The position numbers and the translations under genes are program-made. From Candidatus Sulfopaludibacter sp. SbA3 (GTDB taxonomy: Bacteria > Acidobacteriota > Vicinamibacteria > Vicinamibacterales > UBA2999): DNA of 64,000 bases. The notes beneath the pieces were generated by a model, which saw only the letters and a list, made by a program, of their open reading frames with translations, was not told the DNA's origin and did not search any database. Location of the stretch: assembly GCA_945903265.1 (NCBI GenBank), contig CAMDNQ010000010.1, positions 6,372-70,371 of the forward strand. The letters are read 5' to 3'. Below are positions 22,901-37,268 of this stretch, piece by piece; position 1 is the stretch's first letter; each line of letters begins with the position of its first letter.

Positions 22901-23214
22901 CATCTATTCAGGCCGCGTCGTTGTTGTCGTGCTCCGATTCGCCAGGCAGTGGGATGCGGGGATTACGGCGCCGGTCGGGATAGAAAGGACGCCGCGACAG
23001 GGCCTCCCGCACGTATGTGCCTGTCCGCTCGGCTTCCCTGCACACGCCGTCGACACCCTCAATGAGGGCATCGAGTTTCTCCGACCAATCCTTCCGGCTG
23101 TCCACGCCTTCTTGGATCGCAAATCCTACGCCCAATTCAGCGTTGAACGGCTGAGGCGGTTTCTTTACAATGCATGCGCGTTCCGTTAATCTCGGCGGTC
23201 CACAGAAGGGGCTT

Positions 23215-24063
23215 ATGCGCAAATCCGCACTCTTGATTTCAGGTGTTCTCGTTGTGGCCGTGCTCGCCACGTCGCTGACAGCACAACAGGCCAAACCGGT
23301 CGCCACGACGCAGAAACCAACCGACGTCCCCACCCTGCTTTTCGAGATGGCCAACACGATGGGCATGCTGCGCGCCATCCAGCAGGAAGATTCGATCATC
23401 ACGCTGGAACACTGGGCCAAAGGCACGGTGACCGTCGGGACGCAGAAGTACGACGTCCCCGAGTACCGCATGAGCGTCAACTACGCGGTCCCGGGTGTGC
23501 GCGTCGACTATCAGCGCCAGATGGGCACGGGCAAGCCCCAGCGCACCATCGAGGTCGTTGCGGGCGGCGCCGCCTGGAACGAGACGGATCGCGGCATGGG
23601 CGCCACGGCGGCCCGCGACCAGGCCAAGCAGCGCGCGGTGCTGCTGTGGACCACCCCGATGGGCGTCGTCAAGGCGGCAAAGATGGCCGGCAACCGCGCG
23701 ACGATGAAGGCGGCCGGCGCGAACGCCTGGACGCTGACCTTCCCGCTGCCGGCACCCGCCGAGGACGTAACCGCCGTCGCGACGGTCCGCCAGGATGCCA
23801 GCCTCCTGGGGCGGGCGAATCCCGCGGCCCTCAAGATCCTGACCGGCACGTACGTCGCCCAGGTCGAAACGACGGGGGCGGTCGTGTCCCAGTCGACGTA
23901 CTCTGAATATGGCGACTGGAATTACGAGGATTACCTGGCGGATATCTTCCAGCCGCGCCGCATCACCCGGCGGGTGGGCGACACGACCTTCGACCTGACA
24001 ACGGTCAATACAAACACTTATAATCCGTACGTGATCATGCCGGTTCCGGCAAACGTCAAGTAA
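23215..24063 (+). CDS. secreted hypothetical protein (first gene of the DUF6152-linked cluster)
   Basis: The internal ATG at 23215 gives MRKSALLISGVLVVAVLATSLTAQQ... (a signal peptide). The mature part is beta-rich. Confidence 0.6.
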   Translation: MRKSALLISGVLVVAVLATSLTAQQAKPVATTQKPTDVPTLLFEMANTMGMLRAIQQEDSIITLEHWAKGTVTVGTQKYDVPEYRMSVNYAVPGVRVDYQRQMGTGKPQRTIEVVAGGAAWNETDRGMGATAARDQAKQRAVLLWTTPMGVVKAAKMAGNRATMKAAGANAWTLTFPLPAPAEDVTAVATVRQDASLLGRANPAALKILTGTYVAQVETTGAVVSQSTYSEYGDWNYEDYLADIFQPRRITRRVGDTTFDLTTVNTNTYNPYVIMPVPANVK

Positions 24064-24076
24064 AAGGAAGCTGCCA

Positions 24077-24487
24077 ATGAAACTCAAGAGCGCTTTTGGA
24101 ATCCTCGCCCTCGTGGCGATTGCGATGTTCTCCTCGTCCTCGGCGGTTGCGCACCACGCCATCCAGGCCGAGTACGAAATGGACCAGACCAAGGGCTTCA
24201 CGGGCGTCATGACGCGGTTCGCCATGATCAACCCGCACTGCCGCTGGTTCTTCGAAGAGACCAAGGCGGACGGCACCAAGGTGGTATGGGAAATGTCGGG
24301 CGCCGGTCCCGGCGCGCTGCGCGCCTCCGGCCTGGTCCGCATCTTCCAGATCGGCCAGCCCTACGAAGTGACCTTCGCTCCCGCCAAGAACGGCGCGAAC
24401 GTCGGCCGCGTGCGGACGATGAAGGGGCCCGATGGCAAGGTCATCACCTTGTTCCATGAGGATCCGACGAATCCGCTCAACAACTAA
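24077..24487 (+). CDS. DUF6152-like secreted protein
   Basis: 136 aa. The signal peptide ends ...SSSAVA and is followed by HHAIQAEYE. INPHCRWFF is the NPH motif shared with the paralogs at 29429..30424 and 36774..37193. Confidence 0.7.
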   Translation: MKLKSAFGILALVAIAMFSSSSAVAHHAIQAEYEMDQTKGFTGVMTRFAMINPHCRWFFEETKADGTKVVWEMSGAGPGALRASGLVRIFQIGQPYEVTFAPAKNGANVGRVRTMKGPDGKVITLFHEDPTNPLNN

Positions 24488-24508: not shown

Positions 24509-25378
24509 ATGATGCGACGTATTCGAACGAGCACCGTCCTGGCGGGCGTCCTCGGCGCTGCGCTCTGGCTCACCGCGGCCGATGCCACGATGCAGCAGGG
24601 TGGCGCCGCGAAGCCTGCCGGCCCGACGCCGCGCGTGGCGGACGGCAAGGTCGACTTCAGCGGCATGTGGGTGAACACCGGCGGCGGCGGCGACATCAAG
24701 CCGGACGAGAGCGGCAACGTCACGGTGCTGAGCCGCGGCCGTCCCTGCCACCCGGGCCAGGAGTGCAAGCCCGCCATCAATTTCGAGCGCGACAGCGGCG
24801 TCCGTCAGCGGCTCGCCTACGGCACGAACGTCCCCCTCTACAAGCCGGAGTACTGGGCGAAGGTCGAGTACAACGACGTGAACGGGAACTTCGTGGACCC
24901 GGAAATCAACTGCTATCCGGACGGGCTGCCGCGCATCGGCGCGCCGAGCAAGATCGTCCAGACGGCGAACGAGTTGATCCTCCTCTACGCGAGCCACAAC
25001 CAGTTCCGCGTGGTGCGGCTTGACGCAACCCAGCATGACCCGATCCGCTCGCAGGACCTCACCTATTTCGGTGACTCGATCACCAGGTGGGAAGGCGACA
25101 CCCTGGTCATCGAAAGCATCGGGTTCACCGACGAGTCGTGGCTCGGCTGGCCCGGGTACCTCCACTCGAACAACATGCGGGTGGTCGAGCGTGTGACGCG
25201 CAACGGGAATCAGCTCACCTGGCAGTTCGAGATTCACGATCCAGAGGTGCTGATGCAGCCGTGGACCATGACTCCGCTGCGCCGTGTCCTGAACGCGAAC
25301 CCGAAGGCGATGCTCATCGAGGACCTGCCCTGCGAGGCGCGCGACAACAAGCACATCGTCACGCGTGAGCGCGGCTAG
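24509..25378 (+). CDS. secreted partner protein of DUF6152 (unnamed family)
   Basis: 289 aa with a signal peptide. Motifs DGKVDFSGMWV, CYPDGLPR, RWEGDTLVIES and VVERV...DPEVLMQPW are shared with 35868..36746 and with the C-terminal half of 29429..30424. Confidence 0.7.
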   Translation: MMRRIRTSTVLAGVLGAALWLTAADATMQQGGAAKPAGPTPRVADGKVDFSGMWVNTGGGGDIKPDESGNVTVLSRGRPCHPGQECKPAINFERDSGVRQRLAYGTNVPLYKPEYWAKVEYNDVNGNFVDPEINCYPDGLPRIGAPSKIVQTANELILLYASHNQFRVVRLDATQHDPIRSQDLTYFGDSITRWEGDTLVIESIGFTDESWLGWPGYLHSNNMRVVERVTRNGNQLTWQFEIHDPEVLMQPWTMTPLRRVLNANPKAMLIEDLPCEARDNKHIVTRERG

Positions 25379-25456: not shown

Positions 25457-26665
25457 ATGACCTTCAGAGCACGTCGTGGTTTCGTGGCTGCGGCCACCGT
25501 TGTGATCGTCTGCCTCCTGGGCGCTGGATATGAAGCGAGCCAGGCGCCCAAACCGGCCGCTCCGGCGCCAAAGCCCGCTGCACCCGCGGCACCGGCCGCT
25601 TCCGGCGCCGCCCAGGGCCAGCCCCCGATGGCCGAGAACGTCTATCTCAACGTCCAGGTCCTGAAGGGCATTCCGGTCGACCAGTTCAACGACGCGATGG
25701 GCATGTTCGCCTCCGCGCTGCTGCTCGACTGCGTCGGCTGCCACCACGGCACGATCACATCGGACCCGAAGGCGTTCGCCATCTCGACGCCGCGCATCGA
25801 GCGCGCGCGGCAGATGGTCGTGATGATGAACAACATCAACAGGCTGTACTTCGGCGGCCAGAAGCGCGTCACCTGCTTCACGTGCCACGCGGGCGACCCG
25901 ACGCCGGAGCCCTCGCCGAGCCTGAGGCTGCAGTACTCGGAACTCATTACCGACACGACATCGTTCGAGTTCTTCCCGGACATCGCCGCGCCGCCCGCGG
26001 AAAAGGTGCTCGCCCGCTACATTGAGGCATCCGGCGGGGCGAAGGCACTGGCGTCGCTGCGCAGCTTTGCGGCCACCGGGACCTATCTGGGCTTCGAAAC
26101 AAGTGACACGGAAGTGCCGTTCGAAGCCGTCGTCCGCGCTCCCGAGCAGCGTGCGGAAAAGGCGGAAACAGGTGCCAACGACCTGCTCTGGTACTTCAAC
26201 GGCAATCAGGCCGGCCGGTACCATCCCGACACACCAATCCCGCTCATTCAGTTCACCGGCTGGAGCCTGATTGGCTCGAAGATCGACACCAAGAGCTTCT
26301 TCCCCACCGAACTGGCCAAGGCGTTCCAGACGTTCCAGATGGGATACGGCGAGGTGGAAGGCAAGGAAACCATCGTCGCCAGGGGAATCAACAAGGGCGA
26401 ATCGCCGGTCAATCTCCACTTCGACAGCGCGACGGGCCTCCTGGTCCGTCTGGTGCGCTGGGTGGACACGCTTGCGGGCCCGGTGCCCGTCCAGATCGAT
26501 TATTCTGACTTCCGCGACGTGGCGGGAGTGAAGATGCCGTTTGCCTGGACGCGGACCTGGACCAACGGTCAAGGGATCATCAAGATCAAGGACATCCGGC
26601 CGAACGTGCAGGTGAACGACGCGCAGTTCGCGCGGCCCAACGTGCCCACGACATCGCTTCGATAG
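25457..26665 (+). CDS. secreted c-type cytochrome (reaction-centre-cytochrome-like N-domain) fused to a beta-rich C-domain
   Basis: 402 aa. Two CxxCH motifs (CVGCH, CFTCH) lie in the context ...YLNVQVLKGIPVDQFNDAMGMFASALLLDCVGCHH..., which resembles the PRC cytochrome c subunit family. The C-terminal ~250 aa have no motif I recognise. Confidence 0.75.
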   Translation: MTFRARRGFVAAATVVIVCLLGAGYEASQAPKPAAPAPKPAAPAAPAASGAAQGQPPMAENVYLNVQVLKGIPVDQFNDAMGMFASALLLDCVGCHHGTITSDPKAFAISTPRIERARQMVVMMNNINRLYFGGQKRVTCFTCHAGDPTPEPSPSLRLQYSELITDTTSFEFFPDIAAPPAEKVLARYIEASGGAKALASLRSFAATGTYLGFETSDTEVPFEAVVRAPEQRAEKAETGANDLLWYFNGNQAGRYHPDTPIPLIQFTGWSLIGSKIDTKSFFPTELAKAFQTFQMGYGEVEGKETIVARGINKGESPVNLHFDSATGLLVRLVRWVDTLAGPVPVQIDYSDFRDVAGVKMPFAWTRTWTNGQGIIKIKDIRPNVQVNDAQFARPNVPTTSLR

Positions 26666-27202: not shown

Positions 27203-28000
27203 ATGTTCCCACTTGTGTCGCAGCGCGTGAACGCCGAGCGGATCGTGGTCCTGGGCTGGCCGCGCGCCATTCTGATGCAGCTGGCGCACCCGCTTGTCGC
27301 GGCCGGCGTCGCGGACCACAGCTCGTTCCGCACGAGCCGCGTCACCGCGGTGAAGCGGCTGCACTACACGATCCGCGCGATGCTCGCCCTGACGTTCGGC
27401 GACGATCAGGGCCGTCGAACGGCCCTCGAGGGCATCAGGACGATTCATCGCCGCGTCAACGGCACGCTGCGCCACGCCACCGGCATCTTCCCCGCGGGCA
27501 CCCGGTACTCCGCCGAGGATCCGGATCTCGTGTTGTGGGTGCATGCCACGCTGCTCGAGACACTTCCGCTCGTCTACGGCCTGCTCGTCGGCCCCATGAC
27601 GCCAGGGGAGCGCGACGCGTACTGCGCGGAGGCGGCGCCAGTGGCGATCGACCTCGGGGCCAGGCCCGCGGACGTTCCGCGAACATGGACGGAGACCTCC
27701 AACTACCTGGCTCGGATGTACGCGGCGGGTGCGATTGCCGTCGGCCGCGATGGGATGGATCTGCAGGCGGCGGTCCTGTCGCCACTTGGGGCGATCGCGG
27801 CGCCAGCCGCCTGGATGAATCGCCTGCTCACCGTTGGGCTGCTCCCCTCCCCCATCCGCGCCCAGTATGGATGGACGTGGAGCGACCGGGATGCACGCTC
27901 GTTCCGGGGCCTCACAACAGCAATCCGGGCGGGACGCCGCCTCGCGCCCGCGCCGGTGGCGCTGTGGCCCGAAGCAAGGCGTGTATCATCCCGGACGTGA
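27203..28000 (+). CDS. MpaB/DUF2236-family oxygenase-like protein
   Basis: The ATG at 27203, directly after the terminator T-run, gives MFPLVSQRVNAERIVVLGWPRAILMQLAHPLVAAGVADHS..., which matches the DUF2236 pattern from memory. The track start at 27008 lies inside the upstream gene. Confidence 0.65.
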   Translation: MFPLVSQRVNAERIVVLGWPRAILMQLAHPLVAAGVADHSSFRTSRVTAVKRLHYTIRAMLALTFGDDQGRRTALEGIRTIHRRVNGTLRHATGIFPAGTRYSAEDPDLVLWVHATLLETLPLVYGLLVGPMTPGERDAYCAEAAPVAIDLGARPADVPRTWTETSNYLARMYAAGAIAVGRDGMDLQAAVLSPLGAIAAPAAWMNRLLTVGLLPSPIRAQYGWTWSDRDARSFRGLTTAIRAGRRLAPAPVALWPEARRVSSRT

Positions 28001-29428: not shown

Positions 29429-30424
29429 TTACTGAAACGTAAAACGCCTGGCCTGCTCCGGCTCGCAGCCGAACCGCTGGAGCCGCTGCTGGGGAACGTA
29501 GTCCCATTCCGCGCTCGCGGTCAGCGGCTCTGCCAGGTATTCGGGGTCTTCGACGAGGAAGTCGATGAGCATCCTCGTCCCGTCCTCGCTGAGGCGGTAC
29601 CGCTCGACGACATGCTTTTGCGATCCTGCCGGCAGGCCGGCCGCGAACGCCGACCCGAACGAATTCCCTACGCGGTGGTCGGCAAACAGTACCGTGTCGA
29701 CTACCAGCACGTTCTTCTCCCAACGCCCAATCGAGTGCCCCTGCCTGGTGCGCATGCCGTCCCGTGGATGCGGCCGCCCATCCATGTGGACCGTGCGGTC
29801 CACGTTGAAGAACTCGCTGCGCATGATGACGCTGTCGCCGCGGACGTCGATTTCGGTCAGGTACGGCAGCGTGGGCAGCTGCGGGGCGACGTGCGGGACG
29901 CACTCGGCGATCGGACTCGCGGCCTCGTTGAACGCTTTCATGGCCGCCAGGCCCTTCGGCGTCGGCGTCAACGTCCCGAAACGCCGCTGGCCGAAGCCAC
30001 GCAGGCTGTTCCAGACGCCGGCCAGGCTGGTGGCGCGGACGGCCGTTCGGGCCGCCGGCGCGCGGGGGACGAGGACCGGCCCGGTCCCGGTCGAGAGCGA
30101 GACCAGAAGGGCGTGATTCCGGCTCCTGTTCCGATCCGGGTTTGCGCGCACCGTCACCGTTGCGCCGACCTTCACGGAGTCACGGGTCCAGCCGCTGCGC
30201 GTGAGAATGGGGGTCGCGTCCGTCTCAATCATCCAGCGCTCGGCCGCCCCGCTCGCGCCCTTTGTATCGATATGGATATACACGTGCGGGTTCGTCCACT
30301 CCACGCGCGCAACCGTCCCCTGGATCGTGACCGGGGACGCCGGGTCGAACTGGGACGCGCTGTGGTGAGCGGACGCTGGATTCGCGGCGGCAAGACCGGC
30401 CGCGAGCACGCAGATGGCTTTCAT
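29429..30424 (-). CDS. secreted fusion protein: DUF6152-like N-domain + partner-family C-domain
   Basis: 331 aa. The signal peptide ends ...ANPASA and is followed by HHSASQFD...VEWTNPHVYIHID (DUF6152-like). The C-terminal half has LAGVW, ECVPHVAPQLP, GRWEKNVLVVDT and VVERYRL...VEDPEYLAEPL, matching the 24509 and 35868 proteins. Confidence 0.7.
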   Translation of the reverse strand: MKAICVLAAGLAAANPASAHHSASQFDPASPVTIQGTVARVEWTNPHVYIHIDTKGASGAAERWMIETDATPILTRSGWTRDSVKVGATVTVRANPDRNRSRNHALLVSLSTGTGPVLVPRAPAARTAVRATSLAGVWNSLRGFGQRRFGTLTPTPKGLAAMKAFNEAASPIAECVPHVAPQLPTLPYLTEIDVRGDSVIMRSEFFNVDRTVHMDGRPHPRDGMRTRQGHSIGRWEKNVLVVDTVLFADHRVGNSFGSAFAAGLPAGSQKHVVERYRLSEDGTRMLIDFLVEDPEYLAEPLTASAEWDYVPQQRLQRFGCEPEQARRFTFQ

Positions 30425-30446: not shown

Positions 30447-31172
30447 TTATTCCGTGGCGAAACAGTAGAACAATCCGACGCCGCCCCAGCTGACGAGATC
30501 TCGCTGGCTGCAGGCCGTCGTGGCGTGCGACGAGTTCCATGACTGATTGCCGTTGCCGATGCGATCAGAGTGGCCTACCTGGGCCGACCCCGCGCCGTTG
30601 CTCGTCCAGTTGTTGCAGGTGTGGTCGGCGGTGTCTGCGAAGGCACGACCATCCGGTTGCGATCCGGTCAGGATGTCGTGGCGAGTTGGCATCGGGTCAC
30701 CGATGCCGTTGACCAGCTCGCCTTTCTCCGTCAGCGCGAACTCCTTCGTCAGGTTGCTGCCCCGGCGCGCCTCGTCCAGCGTGTCCCCATGGATCTCCGA
30801 CGAGATAATTGGCCGGCTCAAACGACGGTTCAGATAGTCCGGGACGCGCTCCTTCGCGCTGAACCACGGTCCCTTGCCGATCCGATCGCGAGCGTTGACC
30901 GCGGGCTGTCCCGGACGGGCCTGGGTACTGAGATACGCCCGCCACGTCCTGCTGCCAGCGCCCACCGCCGTCGCCAGCGTCTGGCAATGAGCGTCGGCGC
31001 CCGCCAGGCCGCCCAGATTCCCCCCGTCGCCGATAGGCTCGCTTGTCACGAAGAACGTCATCAGGCTGGAGGGAATGCGATCAGGGGGCGGGATCGGGCC
31101 GGAACCCTGTGCGTCCGCCGCGCCAGGCGCGGCGACGATGCCGACAAACAGCCACCAACAAAGGCGTTTCAT
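30447..31172 (-). CDS. secreted Cys-containing lectin/endostatin-like (DUF1554-like) protein, paralog 1
   Basis: 241 aa with a signal peptide. Motifs are TFFVTSEPIGDGGNLGGLAGADAHCQ, HTCNNWTS and the C-terminal LFYCFA. The family assignment is from memory. Confidence 0.6.
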   Translation of the reverse strand: MKRLCWWLFVGIVAAPGAADAQGSGPIPPPDRIPSSLMTFFVTSEPIGDGGNLGGLAGADAHCQTLATAVGAGSRTWRAYLSTQARPGQPAVNARDRIGKGPWFSAKERVPDYLNRRLSRPIISSEIHGDTLDEARRGSNLTKEFALTEKGELVNGIGDPMPTRHDILTGSQPDGRAFADTADHTCNNWTSNGAGSAQVGHSDRIGNGNQSWNSSHATTACSQRDLVSWGGVGLFYCFATE

Positions 31173-31179
31173 GGCTTCC

Positions 31180-31965
31180 TCAGTTGATCGCGAAGCAATA
31201 GAACATCCCCACGCCGTGGGTCCTGTTCAGCGCGGTCTGACTGCACCCGTTTGTGCCGTGCGAGGAATTCCATGAGCCATTGCCGCCGCCGTTGCGATCG
31301 GGAAACCCAATCTGCGCATTCGGCTTCCCAGGCGCAGGCCCCATCCCTCCGGGCTGTCCGGGAGCGGGATCGGCGCTGCTCGTCCAGTTGCTGCACGTGT
31401 AGTCCATGTCCGGCGGAAACGCCCGGCCGTCCAGCTGGGATCCGGTGAGCATCTCGTGCCGGTTGGTATACGGAGTCGTCCTGCTGTACTCCCAGTCAGA
31501 GTCGCGGGGCACCTGGTAGTCATTGAGCCCCGGCACAATCTGACCCTTCTCGGTCAGTCCCGATCGCTTGTGCAGGTTGTTCCCCAGCCGCGCGAGCTCG
31601 ATCGTGTCTCCGTGCAGGTGGGCGACACTGCTGGCGATCATCACGCCGTCGACGTTGTGCCAGGGGCCGGCGCCGATGCGGTCGCGCGCGTTGACGGCCG
31701 GCTGGCCGGGACGGGCCTGGGTGCTGAGATACGCCCGCCACGTCCGGTTGCCCGCGCCGACGGCCGTCGCCAGCGCCTGACAGTGCGCGTCCGCGCCGGC
31801 CAGGCCACCCAGATTGCCGCCCTCGCCGATCGGCTCGCTGGTCACGAAAAACGTCATGGGCGTTCCACCCGGCATGCCGGACTGCGCGTTCGCGACCGAC
31901 GGCGCCAGGCCGCACAGCGCCACGAGGGCGGCGGGAACGACACCCGCTTTCATCCATCGCTTCAT
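31180..31965 (-). CDS. secreted lectin/endostatin-like (DUF1554-like) protein, paralog 2
   Basis: The ATG at 31965 gives MKRWMKAGVVPAALVALCGLAPSVANAQ... The protein shares long near-identical blocks with paralog 1 (TFFVTSEPIGEGGNLGGLAGADAHCQALATAVGAGNRTWRAYLSTQARPGQPAVNARDRIG). The track ORF extends upstream without support. Confidence 0.6.
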   Translation of the reverse strand: MKRWMKAGVVPAALVALCGLAPSVANAQSGMPGGTPMTFFVTSEPIGEGGNLGGLAGADAHCQALATAVGAGNRTWRAYLSTQARPGQPAVNARDRIGAGPWHNVDGVMIASSVAHLHGDTIELARLGNNLHKRSGLTEKGQIVPGLNDYQVPRDSDWEYSRTTPYTNRHEMLTGSQLDGRAFPPDMDYTCSNWTSSADPAPGQPGGMGPAPGKPNAQIGFPDRNGGGNGSWNSSHGTNGCSQTALNRTHGVGMFYCFAIN

Positions 31966-35867: not shown

Positions 35868-36746
35868 TTAGCCGCGTTCCTTCGTGACCATGTGCTGCAG
35901 GTCGCGCTCGAAACACGGCAGGTCTTCCTCGAGCTCCGCATTCGGATCCGGATTTAGCCGGATCATGCGCGGTGCGAGGACCCACGGCTGCAGGAAGAAC
36001 GGGTCTTCGACGGTCGCCTGCCAGCGCAGCATGTTGCCCTCGCGGCGGAGACGCTCGGTCACCTTCATGTCGATCGAGTGGATCCATCCGGGCCATCCGA
36101 GCCAGGTTTCGTCGTTGAAGTCCACAGTCTCGATGACGAGCTCGTCGCCTTCCCAGCGGCCGCGCGACACGCCGTTCCACAGCCCGATCCATTCGGCCAC
36201 GGGCGGCATTGGACGCCCGTCGATCGGGATGATGCGCGTCATGCGCATGCCGTACAGGAAGATCAGTTCCTTCGGTGTCTGGACGATCTTCTCGGGGGGC
36301 CCCATGCGGGGGACGCCTTCGGGCAGGCACCTGAACGCCGGGTCCGCGGCGTTGCCGTCCTTATCGAGCTGATTGATCTTCTCCCAGTGCTCCGGTTTGT
36401 ACATCGGCCGGTTGCGCACGGCGCGCTGCGACAGGCCGCTGTCGCGCTCGAAGTTCAGGATGGCATGCGCGTAGTTGGCGTCGGTGCCTGCTGGAGCCGT
36501 CTTGTCCAGTTCGGGCGTCCGCGCGCGCAGCAACGCCACGACGCGATCGTCATCGACCGGAGCCGCATTCGCATTAATGGCTCCGCCGCCACCGCCGCCG
36601 GCCCAGATCCCGCTCAGGTCCGGCTTGCCGTCCGCGGTGCGTGGCGTCGCACCCGCCGGTGCGGTCGCCGCCTGCTGCTGGGCGGCGAGTCCGGCCGTGG
36701 ACGCCGCAAGAAATCCCGCCAGGAGAATGGATACGGGTGCCTTCAT
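35868..36746 (-). CDS. secreted partner protein of DUF6152 (paralog of 24509..25378)
   Basis: Motifs DGKPDLSGIWA, CLPEGVPR, RWEGDELVIET, VTERL...VEDPFFLQPW and the C-terminal ...DLPCFERDLQHMVTKERG align with the 24509 protein. The ATG at 36746 is preferred because a GGAG lies 8 nt upstream. The track start is the GTG at 36755. Confidence 0.7.
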   Translation of the reverse strand: MKAPVSILLAGFLAASTAGLAAQQQAATAPAGATPRTADGKPDLSGIWAGGGGGGAINANAAPVDDDRVVALLRARTPELDKTAPAGTDANYAHAILNFERDSGLSQRAVRNRPMYKPEHWEKINQLDKDGNAADPAFRCLPEGVPRMGPPEKIVQTPKELIFLYGMRMTRIIPIDGRPMPPVAEWIGLWNGVSRGRWEGDELVIETVDFNDETWLGWPGWIHSIDMKVTERLRREGNMLRWQATVEDPFFLQPWVLAPRMIRLNPDPNAELEEDLPCFERDLQHMVTKERG

Positions 36747-36773
36747 CGTCATCACTCCAGGAACCTCAGGCGT

Positions 36774-37193
36774 TTACTTCGCGAGATCGGCTTCGCCGTA
36801 GACGCCGCGCGTGAACGTGCGCCCGTCGGCAAATGTGATCGACCTCAGGAGGCCGGTGGTCGATCCGTCGCGCGCCGCAAACGCCGTCGCCGTAATCGGA
36901 TCGCCAATCTTCGCACCGCCGCGGGCCGACAGCGGGAAGCCGTTGCGCCGCAGCTGGTTGGCCGCCGCCATCTGGAGCTCCCAGTCTTCTTCCTTGCCGG
37001 TCTGCTCGTTCTTCACCGTGATGAACAGCTTGGCGTGCGGATTGATCCACTCGGTCTTCTTGAGGGTGCCCTTGATGGTCACCGCCGGCTTGTTGATGTC
37101 GAACTGCGCCTGCACGGCGTGATGCGCGGCAACAGGCGTCCCGGCGACGAGCAGCGCGGCGGCGAGGAATCCACCCAGAAATCGGAATGACAT
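36774..37193 (-). CDS. DUF6152-like secreted protein (paralog)
   Basis: The ATG at 37193 is preceded by GGAGG. The signal peptide ends ...GTPVAA and is followed by HHAVQAQFD...TEWINPHAKLFI. Confidence 0.7.
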   Translation of the reverse strand: MSFRFLGGFLAAALLVAGTPVAAHHAVQAQFDINKPAVTIKGTLKKTEWINPHAKLFITVKNEQTGKEEDWELQMAAANQLRRNGFPLSARGGAKIGDPITATAFAARDGSTTGLLRSITFADGRTFTRGVYGEADLAK

Positions 37194-37268
37194 AGTGCCT
37201 CCAGCTAGTGCGTTGAAACTGGGCTCATTGTGCATCGCGCCGAGGTCTCTGTCCAGACCGCGGAACGG

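Follow-up and report, generated by a model that had tools for sequence, protein, structure and literature searches.

A fused gene of Candidatus Sulfopaludibacter sp. SbA3 joins DUF6152 to a partner module with which it is recurrently linked

The stretch of DNA analyzed here (the window) comprises 64,000 nucleotides (nt) of contig CAMDNQ010000010.1, positions 6,372 to 70,371 of the forward strand, from the soil acidobacterium Candidatus Sulfopaludibacter sp. SbA3. It encodes two kinds of exported protein module, named here A, the DUF6152 module, and B, a partner module whose family is defined by the profile used in this work. A single gene on the minus strand (29429..30424) encodes both modules in one product of 331 amino acids (aa). 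This gene is a genuine, conserved single-chain form of a two-part periplasmic unit that is encoded many times as gene pairs in the same genome. The probability that A and B belong together as the two halves of a single periplasmic unit, with the fusion of the window as its single-chain form, is put at about 0.9.

The fused product opens with a signal peptide (aa 1–19, ending in ...ASA|HH) and continues with the DUF6152 domain, which covers 30062..30382 on the minus strand as the envelope of the profile hidden Markov model match and has a predicted mature N-terminus at H20-H21. A linker of about 20 aa leads to the predicted B barrel domain (29438..30049, minus strand), which was recognized by the B profile, by BLASTP to two stand-alone B proteins, and by Foldseek. 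The separate genes form two pairs. On the plus strand, A1 (24077..24487, 136 aa, signal peptide ending in ...AVA|HH) is followed 21 nt downstream by B1 (24509..25378, 289 aa, likewise with a signal peptide). On the minus strand, B2 (35868..36746, 292 aa, alternative GTG start at 36755) lies directly downstream of A2 (36774..37193, 139 aa, or 153 aa from an alternative ATG at 37235). An earlier note on this DNA had described the same two modules in three configurations, as two adjacent gene pairs and one fused reading frame. The listing of open reading frames contains all five frames at the coordinates given there, and the description was borne out by DUF6152 matches and by the homology of the B modules.

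The Pfam model DUF6152 (PF19649) matches A1 with 42.5 bits (E = 7e-11), A2 with 78.2 bits (E = 5e-22) and residues 12–102 of the fusion with 106.8 bits (E = 6e-31). All three exceed the gathering cut-off of 27 bits and belong to the family. Neither B1 nor B2 nor the C-terminal two-thirds of the fusion had a match in Pfam or NCBIfam. B1 and B2 share 49% identity (BLASTP E = 7e-67), and residues ~168–304 of the fusion align with B1 (E = 2e-9, 27% identity) and with B2 (E = 2e-7). A B profile made from the genome's own B paralogues matched the fusion over 207 of its 214 positions (E = 3e-43), and matched B1 (E = 5e-64) and B2 (E = 5e-66) over at least as many. The C-terminal half of the fusion is thus homologous to the proteins encoded from 24509 and 35868, as the earlier note had supposed. 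The profile motifs GxW, CxPxGxPR, GxSxGRWEGDxL, ER, DP...P and a C-terminal Cys are present in all three B modules. So are the shared motifs listed previously, namely xSG[IVM]W (LAGVW in the fusion), CxPxGxP, GRWExxxLV, V[VT]ER and EDPxxLxxP. All five products open with a signal-peptide-like segment, and cleavage is predicted from the sequence at AxA|HH in all three A modules. The B part of the fusion lacks a separate signal peptide and retains the first B strand (LAGVW). The same modules are therefore found both in separate genes and in a single reading frame with homology for both halves, which is the arrangement of a Rosetta stone.

Thousands of database proteins are related to the fusion. 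The best 120 are all about 320–340 aa long and all contain PF19649, with identities from 94% down to 50%. Scanning one genome per species yielded 549 stretches encoding fusion relatives, of which 78 loci were kept. These loci come from Acidobacteriota (Vicinamibacterales, Terriglobia), Alphaproteobacteria (Micropepsaceae, Rhodospirillaceae) and Gammaproteobacteria (Ca. Rariloculaceae, Arenicellaceae and others). The A and B profiles located 128 fused units in them, with A at the N-terminus in every one, together with 46 split pairs on the same strand, in either gene order and often in arrays. Adjacency of the two families, which the earlier note required to be conserved in other genomes, accordingly extends far beyond this one. 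A frameshift or assembly artefact was also considered as the origin of the fused frame, and was ruled out by the more than 120 full-length relatives of ~330 aa with PF19649 and by the fused units in other genomes.

In a B tree of 227 tips, the fusion of the window sits in an all-fused clade of 92–94 tips with support of 99, and further fused clades lie inside groups of split forms. Changes between the fused and split states number 10 on the B tree and 12 on the A tree, compared with about 70 when labels were shuffled on the A tree. The fusion is thus recurrent, which carries more weight than one Rosetta stone would.

Linkage of the two families was quantified in the 3.52-Mb genome itself using iterated profiles over all open frames. 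Since gene calls are crude, the counts are profile hits in open frames and not annotated genes. The census found 43 A domains and 50 B domains, including one A=B fusion, that of the window, and two B=B fusions. When adjacency was taken as fusion or a distance of at most 400 nt on the same strand, 23 of the 43 A domains were linked to a B domain compared with an expectation of 1.1 (binomial 1.6e-25). In 17 of these A precedes B, in five B precedes A, and one is fused. The earlier note had counted the partner family next to DUF6152-like proteins twice more; this is true within the window and far too low for the genome. Adjacent A and B modules also co-diverge (Mantel r 0.55–0.58, a value reached in none of 5000 permutations), and those at the other loci behave likewise.

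The two families also co-occur. Among 301 genomes sampled evenly from the phylum, B was found in 29 and DUF6152 in 30. Both occur in 27 genomes, A only in three and B only in two, one of which is 75% complete. Copy numbers increase together as well. Compared with 43 A and 50 B domains here, DUF6152 and B matches number 76 and 94 in a genome of Micropepsaceae (G302), 104 and 140 in Ca. Rariloculus (G303), and at least 150 each in Ca. Rariloculaceae (G301). In these three proteobacterial genomes, A and B are probably among the largest paralogous families. Searching 1.84 billion proteins gave 22,625 cluster representatives of the B family at E ≤ 1e-3.

Domain-fusion or Rosetta-stone inference, reportedly introduced by Marcotte and by Enright in 1999, holds that separate and fused states of two modules imply functional partners. 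Both states are found here in one window. The present case goes beyond the classical single Rosetta stone in that fusion took place independently several times, and in that B is also fused to a second partner, cytochrome c, and to another B. The functional partnership that had been argued from one fusion and local adjacency is supported by linkage, co-occurrence, co-divergence and recurrent fusion, and a physical complex of the two modules would be in keeping with it.

An AlphaFold (AF2) model of the fusion was calculated from an alignment of 66 sequences. It has a mean predicted local distance difference test (pLDDT) score of 86.3 and a predicted template modeling (pTM) score of 0.81, and the latter fits a fixed packing of the A domain on the B domain in the predicted structure. 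In the secondary structure of the model, the A domain has the topology b1-b2-b3-helix-b4-b5, the strand order of an oligonucleotide/oligosaccharide-binding (OB)-like domain. Foldseek searches of the PDB with the fusion model returned CRABP, CRBP, FABP and tardigrade SAHS proteins with a probability of 1.0, E-values from 7e-5, target TM scores of 0.55–0.63 and root-mean-square deviations of 6–7 Å over ~185 columns. B1 modeled alone (pLDDT 72.8) again placed SAHS and FABP on top, with weaker scores (E = 2e-3). The models point to a calycin/FABP-like β-barrel for B, with a likeness at the level of the fold only. Among 59 B members, no match to lipocalin/FABP or to any other Pfam family was found at E ≤ 1. 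A search of PDB sequences with three profiles gave no significant relative of A or B, and none for B at E ≤ 10.

FABP, CRABP, CRBP and SAHS are small calycin barrels that enclose a hydrophobic ligand. They are the best structural matches of B, which has no sequence relationship to them and differs in being exported, in its larger size (~200–290 aa), in its invariant pair of Cys residues and in its regular association with A or a cytochrome c domain. In fusion numbering, the residues conserved among 238 B domains are C175, C320, R210, G229, S231, W235, E274, R275, D293-P294 and P300. C175 and C320 probably form a disulfide. Conservation in 223 A domains is concentrated at H20, H21, N45-P46-H47, W64 and R76. 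Among these, H20, H21, P46 and H47 are 99–100% conserved, and they are present in all three copies of the window.

B has a second fusion partner. In a large family of proteins of about 330–390 aa, a monohaem cytochrome c (PF13442) is joined to B. Four loci of this family were sampled (L095:8001-9424, L099, L100 and L101; 62–100% identity). In all four, DUF6152 is in the operon of the cytochrome c=B gene, within one or two genes after it, the order being either B, cytochrome c=B, B, DUF6152 or cytochrome c=B followed by DUF6152. A pyrroloquinoline quinone (PQQ) dehydrogenase is adjacent in three of the four loci, and further B genes flank the cytochrome c=B gene in three. In the window, the next gene after B1 encodes a PufC-like c-type cytochrome with a β-rich C-terminal domain (25457..26665, plus strand; Pfam and NCBIfam matches). 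Of the genome as a whole, only 12.8% lies no more than 5 kb from an A or B gene. Within that distance are nine of the 10 PufC-like cytochromes, seven of the 11 dihaem cytochromes, seven of the eight DUF2231/DUF6644 membrane proteins and 15 of the 38 CarboxypepD_reg-type outer-membrane receptors. TonB-dependent receptors were considered as an obligate partner and rejected, since only these 15 are so close and such receptors are not recurrent at the 78 fused loci. Elsewhere in the same genome, outside the window, a 708-aa fusion of a bc1/b6-type cytochrome b, a PufC-like cytochrome c and a β-rich domain is encoded convergently to an A-B-B triplet (G000:C7:139654-143935).

A pair of small membrane proteins is a further neighbor. 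In several acidobacterial families, genomes with a single A keep a conserved locus consisting of B, B', A and two convergent genes for DUF6644 four-helix membrane proteins (L079:8149-11549, with the same layout in L080–L089). DUF6644 occurs in the same genomes as A, and it adjoins A in the three A-only genomes. The pair stands beside one A per genome in both Acidobacteriota and Proteobacteria, and the three proteobacterial genomes contain only 3–7 DUF6644 genes compared with 76 to at least 150 A. There are thus many A–B units and few membrane partners. No CopD-family membrane partner was found near the three modules in the window. DUF6644 showed a weak, sub-threshold match to DUF2214 (E = 0.004–0.02) and no match to CopD. 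Seemingly B-less A genes elsewhere in the genome (G000:C3:49551-50910 and G000:C13:32510-33334) are directly followed by DUF6644, so that some lone A genes are paired with a membrane component instead. In a further membrane protein outside the window (G000:C2:47096-48157), an N-terminal DUF2231 half is joined to a DUF6644-like C-terminal half.

Taken together, the observations suggest a periplasmic two-part unit in which a His-tipped metal site and a ligand barrel are coupled to c-type cytochromes. To this whole reading, chemistry included, we give slightly better than even odds. Cleavage of the signal peptide is predicted to free a His-His N-terminus on the OB-like A domain. This end and H47, the invariant His of the NPH motif, would most likely form a metal site, which is proposed because H20, H21 and H47 are so nearly invariant in A. 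B may be described as a disulfide-braced, FABP-type calycin barrel, most likely with a small and probably hydrophobic ligand inside. The two parts would act as one complex, with the fusion tethering A to B. The unit could exchange electrons with c-type cytochromes and would then be a redox-active binding or catalytic module. This link is proposed because of the cytochrome c=B fusions, the presence of DUF6152 in their operons, the clustering of cytochromes near A and B, and the cytochrome after B1. The paralogues would presumably differ in the ligand that they take.

Several observations weigh against this reading. In the own genome, 20 of the 43 A and 24 of the 50 B domains have no member of the other family within 400 nt, and B often stands in B-B tandems or B=B fusions that lack A. 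The A:B ratio is therefore not fixed at 1:1. The carriers of A and B represent about five to seven family-level groups and not 27 independent events, related genomes being non-independent, and the p-values for neighbor enrichment likewise count clustered paralogues as independent. The conserved Arg, Ser, Trp, Glu, Arg and Asp residues of B match no known cofactor. The fused subfamily seldom has either kind of partner close by: only two of its 78 loci contain DUF6644, and their recurrent neighbors include no cytochrome family. No solved structure of A or B and no paper, experimental or other, on either was found in PDB sequences and full-text papers.

Alternatives range from no function at all to a different function for the same parts. 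The simplest is that A and B are neighbors merely through joint duplication in variable regions and that the fusion is functionally meaningless. Many copies do lie in dense arrays, as on contig C2 of this genome at 49–68 kb, and tandem duplication by itself would yield some co-divergence. Such an accident is nevertheless very improbable in view of linkage across phyla, recurrent fusion, a large and conserved fused clade with thousands of database relatives, the agreement of presence and absence across 301 genomes, and the confident and compact predicted structure of the fusion. Chance adjacency is effectively excluded. A more specific alternative is copper capture and hand-over, in which A would bind copper at a histidine-brace-like N-terminus and pass it to the DUF6644 pair, as in CopC-CopD or YcnI-YcnJ, with B as an accessory. 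The proteins of this kind (CopC-CopD, YobA-YebZ, YcnI-YcnJ and the lytic polysaccharide monooxygenases, LPMOs) are, like A, exported and have a distal conserved His and an N-terminal His freed by signal-peptide cleavage, a cleavage that in A is predicted. The DUF6644 pair beside one A per genome, also in the A-only genomes, would take the place of their membrane partners, and it has a faint similarity to DUF2214. The placing of DUF2214 among the CopD-like four-helix membrane families serves as a lead and does not amount to a test. A chaperone for one metal would not need 43 to more than 150 paralogues served by only 3–13 DUF6644 genes, copy numbers far above those of histidine-brace systems, and no copper-homeostasis genes are among the recurrent neighbors. 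The A domain, in which the metal site is putative, is predicted to be OB-like and not an immunoglobulin- or cupredoxin-like β-sandwich as in CopC, YcnI and LPMOs, and the top 50 Foldseek matches of the fusion model included no sandwich-fold copper protein. Copper hand-over also leaves the barrel, the cytochrome c=B fusions and the PQQ dehydrogenases without a role, the first two having no counterpart in histidine-brace systems. We consider it unlikely, although worth keeping in view.

About equally unlikely is that the A–B units are diversified periplasmic solute receptors that carry ligands from TonB-dependent receptors to a few shared membrane partners. The Bug/TctC receptors of tripartite tricarboxylate transporters provide a precedent, with tens to more than 100 periplasmic copies and only a handful of TctAB-type membrane components. 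The expansion of A and B is similar, the predicted FABP-like barrel of B is a fold that binds small hydrophobic ligands, and some of the outer-membrane receptors lie close by. The fold of the units is unrelated to that of Bug/TctC, no transporter was recognized, and neither the His triad nor the cytochrome links are known Bug features. An invariant His-His/His triad would be unusual in a plain binding protein. The fusions that join B to cytochrome c, like the enriched cytochromes nearby, speak for redox chemistry. The outer-membrane receptors are not constant neighbors, since 23 of the 38 are elsewhere and none is recurrent at the 78 fused loci, and DUF6644 is no known transporter. At the other extreme, the two-part unit coupled to cytochromes might represent periplasmic metallo-oxidoreductases of a new class. 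The OB domain would bear a histidine-brace-like copper centre that acts on a small hydrophobic substrate in the calycin barrel, with dedicated c-type cytochromes and a DUF6644 membrane hub delivering or withdrawing electrons, and tens to hundreds of paralogues per genome would each be substrate-specific. This bolder version is doubtful, somewhat more so than either copper hand-over or solute reception. If true, it would carry the logic of LPMOs and their cytochrome donors over to small molecules in bacteria.

A literature search found no paper that mentions DUF6152 or PF19649 and none that joins the histidine brace, the OB-fold and the periplasm. The Pfam entry for DUF6152 describes a sequence family without a function and covers only the A domain of ~100 aa. 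The A–B pairing, the B domain and the fusion are absent from Pfam, NCBIfam, the PDB sequences and the full-text papers searched, and no characterized relative was found for A, B or DUF6644. For B, with more than 22,000 clusters at 50% identity in public data, neither a Pfam model nor a structure nor a paper was found. In the present genome the two families account for about 3% of the genes (93 domains relative to roughly 2,800 genes), and expansions as large as this are usually a sign of proteins that meet substrates of diverse chemistry. The linkage of a His-tipped domain with a ligand barrel and cytochromes suggests that soil and sediment bacteria possess a large unexplored area of periplasmic chemistry. 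The fusion offers a practical handle on it, as a single mature protein of 312 residues that could be expressed for metal, ligand and structural work.

Just upstream of A1, 23170..24063 on the plus strand encodes an exported protein of 297 aa without a Pfam match, and for six of its seven paralogues in the genome the distance to A or B is at most 5 kb. Homology of this protein to the C-terminal domain of the cytochrome encoded after B1 was considered and is not supported (BLASTP E = 1.5). Directly after the exported five-gene cluster that includes A1 and B1 lies a gene with an MpaB/Lcp rubber-oxygenase catalytic domain (27206-28000, plus strand; Pfam E = 7e-53). Upstream of the fusion on the minus strand are two tandem genes for exported, Cys-rich, DUF1554-like proteins (30447..31965). 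Because they are co-oriented with the fusion and separated by gaps of only 7 and 22 nt, the three genes probably form one operon. A scan for promoters and terminators around it found nothing beyond the expectation from shuffled sequence. The same DUF1554-like family adjoins fusion relatives in six of the 78 loci (for example L001:6204-7058). The commonest other neighbor of the fusions is an exported NHL-repeat β-propeller protein of ~430 aa (16 of the 78 loci, such as L001:4004-5311), and the second commonest is a protein of the metallo-β-lactamase fold (11 of the 78).

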